Under the pieces are notes generated by a model that was not told the origin of the DNA, did no database searches, and saw only the letters and a program-made list of their open reading frames with translations. From Qubevirus faecium: 4,273 nt of DNA. This document shows positions 1,405 through 4,169 of this stretch, one piece after another. Both the position numbers and the translations under genes were made by a program. Each line of letters begins with the position of its first letter. The stretch's first letter is position 1. Location: the sequence record FJ539134.1. One strand, written 5' to 3'.

Positions 1405-1423
1405 ACTTTGGGTCAATTTGATC

Positions 1424-1822
1424 ATGGCAAAATTAAATCAGGTAACTCTTTCCAAAATCGGAAAGAATGGGGATCAGACTTTAACTCTTACACCGCGCGG
1501 GGTAAACCCGACGAACGGCGTGGCGTCGCTGTCTGAAGCTGGAGCTGTTCCGGCTTTGGAAAAGCGCGTGACTGTGTCAGTTGCGCAGCCTTCCCGTAAC
1601 CGTAAGAACTTTAAAGTTCAGATTAAACTCCAAAACCCGACTGCATGCACGAAGGACGCATGTGACCCATCTGTGACGCGATCTGCTTTCGCAGACGTAA
1701 CGCTGTCGTTCACGTCGTATTCTACCGACGAAGAACGTGCGCTAATTCGCACTGAGTTGGCAGCTCTGTTGCAGGACAATCTGATCATCGATGCAATCGA
1801 TAATCTGAATCCTGCTTACTGA
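1424..1822 (+). CDS. cp: Major coat protein
   Basis: ATG at 1424 gives MAKLNQVTL...NPAY, 132 codons plus UGA stop. Near-identical in blocks to Qbeta coat as I recall it (PRGVNPTNGVASLS, PALEKRVTVSV, QPSRNRKN, QNPTAC...CDPSVTR, STDEERA, RTELAALL, IDAI, LNPAY), including the two Cys residues. The track's 1418 start is a TTG two codons upstream; ATG 1424 is preferred. Confidence 0.95.
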   Translation: MAKLNQVTLSKIGKNGDQTLTLTPRGVNPTNGVASLSEAGAVPALEKRVTVSVAQPSRNRKNFKVQIKLQNPTACTKDACDPSVTRSAFADVTLSFTSYSTDEERALIRTELAALLQDNLIIDAIDNLNPAY

Positions 1823-2419
1823 GCAGCGTTACTGGTAGCCTCGTCCGGCGGTGGGGATAACCCCTCAATGCCAGACGTTCCGGATCTTCCAGACGTCAAA
1901 CCGCCTGACGGAACGGGGCGCTATACGTGCCCCTTCTCCTGTTACCGCCTCGGTAGTATCTACGAGGAGGGTAAGGACGGTTCTCCTGACATCTACGAAA
2001 GGGGAGACGAAGTCTCGGTTACTTTCGATTATGCTCTCGAGGATTTTCTTGGGAACACAAATTGGCGTAACTGGGATCAGCGATTGTCATCATATGACTT
2101 AGCTAATCGTCGTCGTTGCCGTGGCAACGGGTACATTGACTTAGATGCCACTGTGATGCAGTCAGACGAATTCGTTCTGTCTGGCCGTTATCCAGTGCGC
2201 AAGGTCAAGTTTCCCGGCGCTTTCGGCTCCATCAAGTATCTCTTGAACATTCAAGGCGATGCCTGGTTGGACTTATCCGAGGTGACAGCCTACCGTTCCT
2301 ACGGAATGGTTATTGGTTTCTGGACAGACTCTAAGAGCCCGCAGCTACCAACCGATTTCACGCAGTTTAACAGTGCTAATTGCCCTGTACAGACGGTGAT
2401 AATCATACCCTCACTTTAA
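1424..2419 (+). CDS. A1: A1 read-through protein (coat extended by UGA suppression; minor capsid protein)
   Basis: Coat frame continues past UGA to TAA at 2417-2419, 331 residues in all. The extension begins with a Gly-rich linker (SSGGGDNPS), then a Pro-rich segment and blocks matching Qbeta A1 from memory (GTGRYTCPF, LGNTNWR.WD.RLS, CRGNGYIDLDAT, PGAFG, VIGFW, FT.F....CP.Q.VI). Confidence 0.88.
1820..1822 (+). promoter_or_regulatory. Leaky UGA stop codon of the coat gene (programmed read-through site)
   Basis: UGA at 1820-1822 in context UAC-UGA-GCA. The same frame stays open through 1823-1867 (gca gcg tta ctg gta gcc tcg tcc ggc ggt ggg gat aac ccc tca) into the 1868-2419 ORF. Confidence 0.85.
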
Positions 2420-2428
2420 GCAACTTAA

Positions 2429-2433
2429 AGGAG
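2429..2433 (+). promoter_or_regulatory. Shine-Dalgarno (AGGAG) for the replicase gene
   Basis: AAAGGAGA at 2427-2434; AGGAG ends 5 nt before the ATG at 2439. Confidence 0.75.
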
Positions 2434-2434
2434 A

Positions 2435-2454
2435 TAGCATGTCAAAGACAGCTA
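2435..2454 (+). promoter_or_regulatory. Replicase translational operator hairpin (coat-protein binding site): stem UAGC/GCUA + UGUC/GACA, bulged A, AAA loop; contains the replicase AUG
   Basis: Seen directly: 2435-2438 uagc pairs with 2451-2454 gcua; 2439 a is unpaired (bulge, first base of the AUG); 2440-2443 uguc pairs with 2447-2450 gaca; loop 2444-2446 aaa. Same architecture as the Qbeta operator (8-bp stem, bulged A, 3-nt loop) as I recall it. Confidence 0.8.
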
Positions 2455-4169
2455 GTCGCAGAAGAGAAATTACTCAGCTATTGGGTAAGGTCGACATCAA
2501 CTTCGAAGACGACATCCACATGTCTATTGCCAACGACCTCTTTGAGGCCTACGGCATCCCGAAACTTCAGAATGCTGAGGAGTGCATTAACACCGCATTC
2601 CCAAGCCTTGATCAAGGCGCAGACACATTTCGTGTCGAGTATTTGCGCGCTGAGATCTTATCGAAGTTCGACGGGCACCCTCTAGGTACTGATACCGAAA
2701 AGACAGCATGGGAGAAATTCCTGGCTGCTGAAGAGGGTTGTAGACTTACGAACGAACGACTGTCGCAGGTTAAGTACCACGATAATTCCATTTTGTCGTG
2801 GGGCGAGCGTGTAATTCATACTGCTCGCCGAAAAATACTTAAACTAATTGGCGAGTCTGTGCCGTTCGGGGATGTGGCGTTGCGCTGCCGATTTTCTGGC
2901 GGTGCAACGACCTCGGTAAACCGTTTACACGGTCATCCGTCGTGGAAGCATGCCTGTCCGCAGGATGTTACCAAACGCGCATTCAAGTACCTGCAAGCCT
3001 TTAAACGGGCGTGCGGTGACGTTGTAGATTTACGCGTCAACGAGGTGCGCACTTCAAATAAAGCAGTCACTGTTCCGAAGAATAGTAAGACTGATCGCTG
3101 TATCGCCATCGAACCCGGTTGGAATATGTTTTTCCAGCTCGGTGTAGGTGCGGTGCTACGCGATAGGTTGCGTTTATGGAAGATTGACCTTAATGATCAG
3201 TCGACCAACCAACGCCTCGCGCGGGATGGGTCTCTGCTAAATCATTTAGCTACCATAGACTTATCCGCAGCCAGTGATTCGATCAGCTTAAAGCTAGTTG
3301 AATTGCTGCTCCCTCCTGAATGGTATGACCTTCTGACAGATCTCCGATCTGATGAAGGCGTTTTACCTGATGGACGAGTTGTGACCTATGAGAAAATATC
3401 CTCCATGGGAAATGGCTACACTTTCGAGCTTGAGTCGCTTATTTTCGCGGCGCTCGCAAGAAGTGTGTGTGAGTTACTAGAAATCGACCAATCTACTGTT
3501 AGCGTGTACGGGGATGATATAATCATCGACACTCGTGCCGCAGCTCCATTAATGGATGTCTTTGAATACGTTGGGTTCACGCCTAACAAAAAGAAGACGT
3601 TCTGCGATGGACCCTTCCGCGAATCGTGCGGTAAGCACTGGTTCCAAGGGGTAGATGTAACGCCCTTTTACATACGCCGACCAATTCGTTGCCTTGCTGA
3701 TATGATACTGGTTTTAAACAGTATCTACAGGTGGGGCACTGTTGATGGTGTATGGGATCCTAGAGCACTGACCGTGTACGAAAAGTATCTCAAGTTGCTG
3801 CCAAGAAATTGGCGACGCAACCGGATACCAGACGGCTACGGAGACGGAGCTCTCGTCGGATTGGCTACGACGAACCCGTTCGTTATAGTTAAGAATTATT
3901 CAAGACTATACCCGGTATTAGTTGAAGTCCAGAGGGACGTCAAGCGTAGCGAGGTAGGCAGTTATCTATATGCCTTACTCCGCGATCGCGAGACACGTTA
4001 TAGTCCTTTCCTGCGTGACGCAGATAGGACTGGGTTTGATGAAGCGCCGCTAGCTACTAGCCTTCGTCGCAAGACAGGTCGGTACAAAGTGGCGTGGATT
4101 CAGGACAGTGCCTTCATCCGGCCCCCGTATTTCATTACGGGCATTCCCGAGGTGAAGCTTGCAAGCTAG
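2439..4169 (+). CDS. rep: RNA-dependent RNA polymerase (replicase beta subunit)
   Basis: 576-aa ORF, ATG with SD, TAG stop at 4167-4169. YGDD catalytic motif at 3507-3518 (VSVYGDDIIID). Long blocks match Qbeta replicase from memory (CRFSGGATT, NKAVTVPKNSKTDRCIAIEPGWNMFFQLG, LATIDLSAASDSISL, VTYEKISSMGNGYTFELESLIFA, FRESCGKH, GVDVTPFYIR, IPDGYGDGALVG). Confidence 0.96.
   Translation: MSKTASRRREITQLLGKVDINFEDDIHMSIANDLFEAYGIPKLQNAEECINTAFPSLDQGADTFRVEYLRAEILSKFDGHPLGTDTEKTAWEKFLAAEEGCRLTNERLSQVKYHDNSILSWGERVIHTARRKILKLIGESVPFGDVALRCRFSGGATTSVNRLHGHPSWKHACPQDVTKRAFKYLQAFKRACGDVVDLRVNEVRTSNKAVTVPKNSKTDRCIAIEPGWNMFFQLGVGAVLRDRLRLWKIDLNDQSTNQRLARDGSLLNHLATIDLSAASDSISLKLVELLLPPEWYDLLTDLRSDEGVLPDGRVVTYEKISSMGNGYTFELESLIFAALARSVCELLEIDQSTVSVYGDDIIIDTRAAAPLMDVFEYVGFTPNKKKTFCDGPFRESCGKHWFQGVDVTPFYIRRPIRCLADMILVLNSIYRWGTVDGVWDPRALTVYEKYLKLLPRNWRRNRIPDGYGDGALVGLATTNPFVIVKNYSRLYPVLVEVQRDVKRSEVGSYLYALLRDRETRYSPFLRDADRTGFDEAPLATSLRRKTGRYKVAWIQDSAFIRPPYFITGIPEVKLAS

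Follow-up and report, generated by a model that had tools for sequence, protein, structure and literature searches.

A Qbeta-type hairpin at the replicase start of a group IV Qubevirus faecium genome and its probable role as a translational operator

Introduction

Does the hairpin that holds the replicase start codon of Qubevirus faecium act as a translational operator bound by coat protein, in the manner of Qbeta? And is the pair formed by this hairpin and its coat protein distinct enough from that of Qbeta to be of separate use? Both questions are raised by sequence record FJ539134.1, a stretch of 4273 nt that is referred to here as the window. Working from its letters alone, the initial annotation placed the replicase AUG inside a coat-protein operator of Qbeta type, and proposed that coat and operator might serve as an orthogonal RNA-tagging pair. 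The hairpin, at positions 2435-2454, is an ortholog of the Qbeta operator, and it is very probably (a probability of about 0.9) the replicase translational operator of a group IV Qbeta-like phage. That coat protein binds the hairpin and represses the replicase gene in this phage we infer by homology to Qbeta. The evidence on structure, on orthology, on selection acting on the RNA and on the coat protein is set out below, together with the other readings that the locus allows.

The genome and its genes

The window is the complete genome of a group IV (SP/FI-like) allolevivirus. Its nearest full-length match is FJ539135 (phage FI strain BR8), at 95.1% identity. Phage SP is about 92% identical to it and HB-P22, HB-P24, NL95 and FI are 79-84% identical; similarity to the Qbeta genome is detectable in parts only. 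The four expected genes are present, each with its expected Pfam family, and the features that matter to the argument are as follows.

52-1404, maturation protein gene
1424-1822, plus strand, coat protein gene, encoding the presumed trans-acting repressor (Pfam Levi_coat, E = 1.4e-57; PDB matches include 4L8H)
Coat gene extended to 2419, read-through protein A1, with its stop codon UAA at 2417-2419
2439-4169, plus strand, replicase beta-subunit gene, the putatively regulated cistron (ORF; Pfam RNA_replicase_B, E = 2.5e-256)
2439-2441, plus strand, replicase start codon AUG (from the ORF list; the same start is annotated in homologous records)
2429-2433, plus strand, replicase Shine-Dalgarno sequence AGGAG, read from the sequence, 5 nt 5' of the AUG

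The most conserved stretch in the 18 Qubevirus genomes compared lies elsewhere. It is a 26-mer spanning the coat start codon, TGGGTCAATTnGATCATGGCWAAATT (window 1409-1434), in which 24 of the 26 positions are invariant, and it falls within the replicase binding region S annotated in SP.

The hairpin and its folding

Bases 2435-2454 of the window, UAGCAUGUCAAAGACAGCUA, form the putative operator. Its parts, with positions counted from the first base of the AUG as +1, are these.

2435-2454, plus strand, probable replicase translational operator hairpin, UAGC[A]UGUC-AAA-GACAGCUA (from folding and orthology with the Qbeta operator)
2435-2438, plus strand, 5' arm of the lower stem, UAGC, non-coding; pairs with 2451-2454, and the two outer pairs covary in Qubevirus
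2439, plus strand, bulged A (+1), with which the replicase AUG begins; unpaired in all folds
2440-2443, plus strand, 5' arm of the upper stem, UGUC; pairs with 2447-2450 and is invariant in Qubevirus save for C at +4 in SP
2444-2446, plus strand, 3-nt loop AAA (+6, +7, +8); relatives have U or A at +6 and always A at +7 and +8
2447-2450, plus strand, 3' arm of the upper stem, GACA, in codons Lys3 and Thr4; no variation at the synonymous third positions +9 and +12
2451-2454, plus strand, 3' arm of the lower stem, GCUA, in codons Ala5 and Ser6; +15 and +16 covary with -3 and -4

This is the structure that had been described from the letters, a stem of 8 bp with a single bulged A and a 3-nt AAA loop, and the bulged base is indeed the A of the replicase AUG (A2439, with the ORF running from 2439). 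The range first assigned to it, 2427-2454, holds for the hairpin itself at 2435-2454 and has to be trimmed on the 5' side, where 2427-2434 (AAAGGAGA) lies outside the hairpin and consists of the Shine-Dalgarno region and a one-base linker, A2434. The last loop base, A2446, is the counterpart of Qbeta A+8 and is adenine in all 18 Qubevirus genomes.

How stable is the fold to the choice of context? The minimum free energy (MFE) string is ((((.((((...)))))))) whatever the context, between 20 nt and the whole genome. Folded by itself, the 20-mer reaches -5.9 kcal/mol (z = -3.97), and equally good folds are found in one of 200 shuffles. The same hairpin is the MFE structure in contexts of 28, 51, 91 and 141 nt as well; in contexts of 61 to 1501 nt all eight pairs are present in the MFE, with pair probabilities of 0.82-1.0, and the full-length 4273-nt MFE includes it. 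No alternative fold is preferred at any of these scales.

The genome was also scanned for the architecture itself (4 bp, one bulge, 4 bp and a 3-nt loop, Watson-Crick pairs only), with dinucleotide shuffles as background. Two sites are found, at 1948 and 2435, against 0.07 expected. When a bulged A and a 3' loop A are also required, 2435 is the only site, and such a site is present in 0 of 300 shuffles. The operator hairpin is not expected by chance. A covariance-model scan of the whole window against Rfam gave no match at E <= 1, and thus Rfam offers no model for this operator.

The other site, at 1948-1967 in the read-through domain (CCUC[G]GUAG-UAU-CUACGAGG), is a second all-Watson-Crick hairpin with the operator geometry. 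Group IV genomes conserve its lower stem, with covariation (CCUCG/CGAGG versus CCGUG/CACGG), and its loop is without a 3' A. As an operator-like packaging signal it was rejected, given that relatives do not share the geometry of its bulge and loop.

Neighbouring RNA structures

The operator has a close neighbour on its 5' side, from which it is separated by one base (A2434).

2410-2433, plus strand, upstream hairpin CUC[A]CUUUAAG-CAA-CUUAAAGGAG (from the MFE; P at least 0.95 in contexts of at least 121 nt)

The whole Shine-Dalgarno GGAG (2430-2433) is paired in the 3' arm of this hairpin, and the A1 stop codon UAA (2417-2419) falls within the 5' arm. Full-length MFE predictions include the hairpin for the window, SP, BR8, HB-P22 and NL95; for FI they give a variant form of it. 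If formed as predicted, it could tie replicase initiation to the termination of A1 translation, or to other events that unfold the RNA. On the 3' side, immediately after the operator, the full-length MFE contains a long-range helix between 1672-1677 in the coat gene (about codons 83-85) and 2455-2460, a predicted pairing that recalls the coat-replicase translational coupling helix of MS2. G2458 is replaced by A in HB-P22, HB-P24 and NL95, a change that would turn a U.G pair into U-A.

Might the operator hairpin then be mainly a structural attenuator, independent of coat protein, that acts together with the Shine-Dalgarno hairpin and perhaps the long-range pairing with the coat gene? The placement of the AUG in a stem and the complete pairing of the Shine-Dalgarno sequence within 2410-2433 are in keeping with this, as is the prediction of the long-range helix in SP and FI as well as in the window. 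However, the helix is not in the MFE of BR8, HB-P22 or NL95, and a stability of -5.9 kcal/mol is modest. Attenuation alone also leaves the conserved 3-nt loop, A+7, A+8 and the unpaired A unexplained. As the main role of the hairpin it is extremely improbable; as an additional role it is compatible with that of an operator.

Comparison with Qbeta and other operators

Replicase start regions were taken from 17 other Qubevirus genomes, which makes 18 with the window. The homologous site of Qbeta (Qubevirus durum) is AUGCAUGUCUAAGACAGCAU, which is the published Qbeta operator sequence (PMC12724129). The two hairpins occupy the same genomic position, on the replicase AUG, and share the 8-bp stem, the 3-nt loop, A+7 and A+8, and a bulged A supplied by the AUG. 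The upper stem UGUC/GACA is identical, the inner lower pairs are GC/GC in both, and the predicted stabilities are nearly equal (-5.9 kcal/mol for the window and -5.7 kcal/mol for Qbeta). Identical bases number 15 of 20. Four of the five differences represent two compensatory base-pair swaps, the outer two pairs being U-A and A-U in the window and A-U and U-A in Qbeta; the fifth is at loop position +6, which is A in the window and U in Qbeta. The homologous position, the shared bases, the compensatory changes in the stem and a Qbeta-like coat protein (described below) all support the Qbeta-type coat-operator architecture first proposed.

Is the AAA loop a peculiarity of this phage? The initial annotation had set it against a UAA loop in Qbeta, and the Qbeta loop is indeed UAA, as both the Qbeta genome sequence and the literature (PMC12724129) attest. 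Codon 2 (Ser, UCA or UCU) has its third base at +6, and the difference between the AAA and UAA loops is therefore a synonymous polymorphism. AAA loops are present in the window, BR8, SP, NL95 and MX1, and UAA loops in HB-P22, HB-P24, FI, M11 and the Qbeta group. The AAA loop is thus a natural U/A polymorphism at +6 and no special feature.

The 20-mer and its flanks are identical in BR8 (FJ539135), and they recur in the metagenome contig MAVO01000006.1 (overall identity to the window, 94%). NL95 and FI have outer pairs other than those of the window, and further departures are seen in three phages. SP has C at +4, which gives a C.A mismatch in the upper stem where the window has an intact pair. 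This C (AUGCCA, encoding Pro2 and not Ser2) is present in all SP records, namely L001 (X07489; 2438-2457), L016 and L017; it lowers the predicted stability to -1.8 kcal/mol, versus -5.9 kcal/mol, and the pair is intact in all other Qubevirus genomes. Viability, to judge from the SP mismatch, does not strictly depend on a perfect stem. In M11 (L014, 2348-2369) and MX1 (L015, 2347-2368) the operator is longer by two bases on its 3' side. The global MFE of each gives a 9-bp stem with a 3' bulge, in which the AUG contributes its A to a pair with U and the bulged base is a C on the opposite strand; in these two phages the A is probably paired in this way. In older binding studies the bulged A is reportedly non-essential for Qbeta coat binding, and partial tolerance at the bulge is reported in PMC7952577; the M11 and MX1 form fits the reports that the bulged A is dispensable.

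Operators of other leviviruses are built on a similar plan. In MS2/R17 (Emesvirus) a coat dimer also sits on a replicase-start hairpin, where it recognises loop adenines and an unpaired purine, and packaging is a second function of the hairpin (PMC3561173; PMC6513524). The MS2 element, however, has a 4-nt loop, 2 bp between bulge and loop and the AUG in its 3' arm, against the 3-nt loop and 4-bp upper stem of the window. An operator of MS2/R17 type was rejected on the basis of loop and upper stem. The PP7 operator likewise has a bulged A at the replicase start, in a hairpin bound by coat protein, but it differs in its 6-nt loop and in a distinct binding mode (PMC6513524). The PP7 coat is reported to be orthogonal to the MS2/Qbeta/GA group (10.1101/168625).

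Distant leviviruses

How far beyond Qubevirus does the architecture extend? Many uncultivated leviviruses came up when IMG/VR was scanned with a replicase profile; the only close relatives in that scan were the SP and FI reference genomes, and the other matches have 35-49% replicase identity. A metagenome scan used the conserved 26-mer at the coat start as query, so that the sample is unbiased with regard to the operator; it gave two contigs only and no new operator variant.

In distant levivirus contigs, whose replicases are 35-44% identical, 8-bp hairpins are found at or beside the replicase AUG, and the last base of their 3-nt loop is A. The stem sequences are unrelated to that of the window, and the identity and position of the bulge vary. 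L037, L040 and L067 have UAUG[A]AGAC-CCA-GUCUCAUA, and L051 has the same with a UCA loop; L052 has UAUG[U]CAUC-UAA-GAUGCGUA and L073 has UAUGU[C]GUC-UAA-GACACAUA. A 6-bp version, GGA[A]GUC-UAA-GACUCC, is found in L035, just after its AUG. The L035 coat is the most window-like among the contigs (33% identity), and is the sole detectably similar coat of the hairpin contigs listed. The count of these distant hairpins, four distinct sequences among 62 loci, is a survey only and is not far above a rough chance estimate. The survey agrees with published ones, in which phages with MS2-, PRR1- or Qbeta-like coats tend to keep a recognisable operator hairpin (PMC6513524). The seven hairpin carriers named here have replicase identities of 35-39%.

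Covariation and selection on the RNA

Pairs were counted over the eight distinct Qubevirus operator sequences in alignment A4; the wider-region alignment A3, which has misplaced gaps in the 3' arm, was left out. Standard pairs are found in 98.4% of pair cells. Compensatory double changes are present at the two outermost pairs, with UA, AU and CG at pair 1 and AU and UA at pair 2, so that the stem does covary across related genomes. When the 3' partners are slid by 1-3 columns as a control, pairing is down to 16-44%. RNAalifold predicts the same structure, and the hairpin is kept in the full-length MFE of all eight other Qubevirus genomes folded, the top of the stem being open in SP.

Could the hairpin be a by-product of conserved coding (Met-Ser-Lys-Thr-Ala-Ser) and of the ribosome binding site, a fold without a function of its own? 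It is mostly coding, and the other six of its eight pairs never vary in Qubevirus, save for the C.A mismatch of SP. By themselves these six invariant pairs are uninformative on structure, and their invariance could partly reflect the conserved MSKTA N-terminus. The covarying pairs, however, join non-coding positions -4 and -3 to coding positions +16 and +15, and coding constraint alone cannot explain the covariation. On the 3' side of the upper stem, the synonymous third bases +9 (Lys3) and +12 (Thr4) do not vary, against a background in which the third base is invariant in 17% (44/259) of comparable replicase codons with an invariant amino acid. The architecture is also kept in distant relatives with different N-terminal codons, within the bounds of the survey above, and for the orthologous hairpin of Qbeta coat binding is established by experiment (PMC12724129, PMC11724954, PMC6513524). 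A mere by-product is barely credible in the face of this evidence.

The coat protein and the rules of recognition

If the hairpin is an operator, its partner should be the coat protein encoded upstream. The window's coat is 80% identical to that of Qbeta, and it matches Qbeta coat chains in the PDB, including 4L8H. The putative RNA-contact surface, which we take to consist of V32, T49, S51, Q65 and K67, and also N30, R59, K60 and D91 (Qbeta numbering), a list that reportedly goes back to work by Rumnieks and Tars from 2014 and draws also on PMC12724129 and PMC11724954, is invariant in all Qubevirus coats (alignment A2). The exception among the contact residues is at position 89. Tyr89 of Qbeta is Phe in the cognate coat of the window and in all aligned group IV coats except NL95 (alignment A2). 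Near residue 89 the NL95 coat reads SGSRD and not SAFAD, possibly through a local frameshift or a sequencing artefact.

What would this replacement mean for RNA binding? 4L8H is the Qbeta coat-operator complex, according to papers that cite it (PMC11724954). In the literature on the Qbeta complex, A+1 and A+7 stack on one tyrosine per monomer, and in 4L8H it is Y89 that stacks the bulged A. As an aromatic ring is retained at position 89, stacking by Phe89 is plausible. A literature search on the contacts of Tyr89, Gln65 and Lys67 gave no usable description.

On the RNA side, the features named as important for the Qbeta coat are the 8-bp stem, the 3-nt loop, A+8, A+7 and the bulged A+1 (PMC12724129; PMC11724954). 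The main needs are said to be the 3-nt loop, a 4-bp upper stem within the 8-bp stem and the last loop adenine (PMC11724954; PMC12724129), and an A at the 3' loop position (+8) is described as necessary (PMC12724129). Elsewhere there is latitude: U(+6)G and U(+6)C have no effect on Qbeta coat binding in vivo (10.1101/168625), and some changes in stem and bulge are tolerated (PMC7952577). The window's operator conforms to all of these rules for Qbeta coat binding.

A proposed mode of action

By analogy with Qbeta, a sequence of events can be proposed. Early in infection the modest stability of the hairpin would let ribosomes initiate replicase synthesis. As coat protein accumulates, a coat dimer would bind the hairpin at 2435-2454, with A2446 (+8) entering an adenine pocket and A2445 (+7) and A2439 (+1) stacking on the aromatic residue 89 of the two monomers. 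The bound dimer would block initiation because the AUG lies inside the stem and the Shine-Dalgarno sequence is only 5 nt upstream; with the 30S subunit kept off the start site, replicase synthesis would be shut down. The same coat-RNA complex is thought to be a high-affinity signal for nucleation or packaging (PMC6071253; PMC10610835; PMC6513524).

That the hairpin is chiefly such a signal for capsid assembly, with repression secondary or negligible, has scarcely any probability: the MS2 and Qbeta operators are also described as the strongest encapsidation site (PMC10610835; PMC6513524), but in 18 of 18 Qubevirus genomes the replicase AUG is inside the stem, which is needed for repression and not for packaging, and since one coat-RNA complex would serve both roles the two views differ in emphasis and not in mechanism.

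An orthogonal tagging pair?

The translational operator and its coat protein might be of practical interest if they ignored their Qbeta counterparts, and a pair able to discriminate in this way would offer an extra usable channel for RNA tagging. Such discrimination would require that the Phe89 coat and the operator variant, with its U-A and A-U outer pairs and A or U at +6, have diverged together far enough from the Qbeta pair, which is very unlikely. Cross-binding with the Qbeta coat is the expectation, because the operator of the window lacks none of the features required and the binding surface of its coat is apparently retained. The proposal of an orthogonal tagging pair is therefore not supported, operator and coat both being too close to those of Qbeta; judging by the comparison, a tagging pair taken from this phage would react with its Qbeta counterpart as well. 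New coat-hairpin pairs would be better sought in the distant contigs L035, L037, L040, L051, L052, L067 and L073 than in the window.

Significance

The element is already known: it is a textbook operator in a known phage species, and its identical 20-mer is public in FJ539135. Beyond correct annotation, its significance is slight. The Qubevirus operators taken together constitute a compact natural mutational series, which comprises three kinds of outer pair, both U and A at +6, the C.A mismatch of SP and the 3' bulge of M11 and MX1, and this series fits the relaxed recognition rules reported for the Qbeta coat protein.
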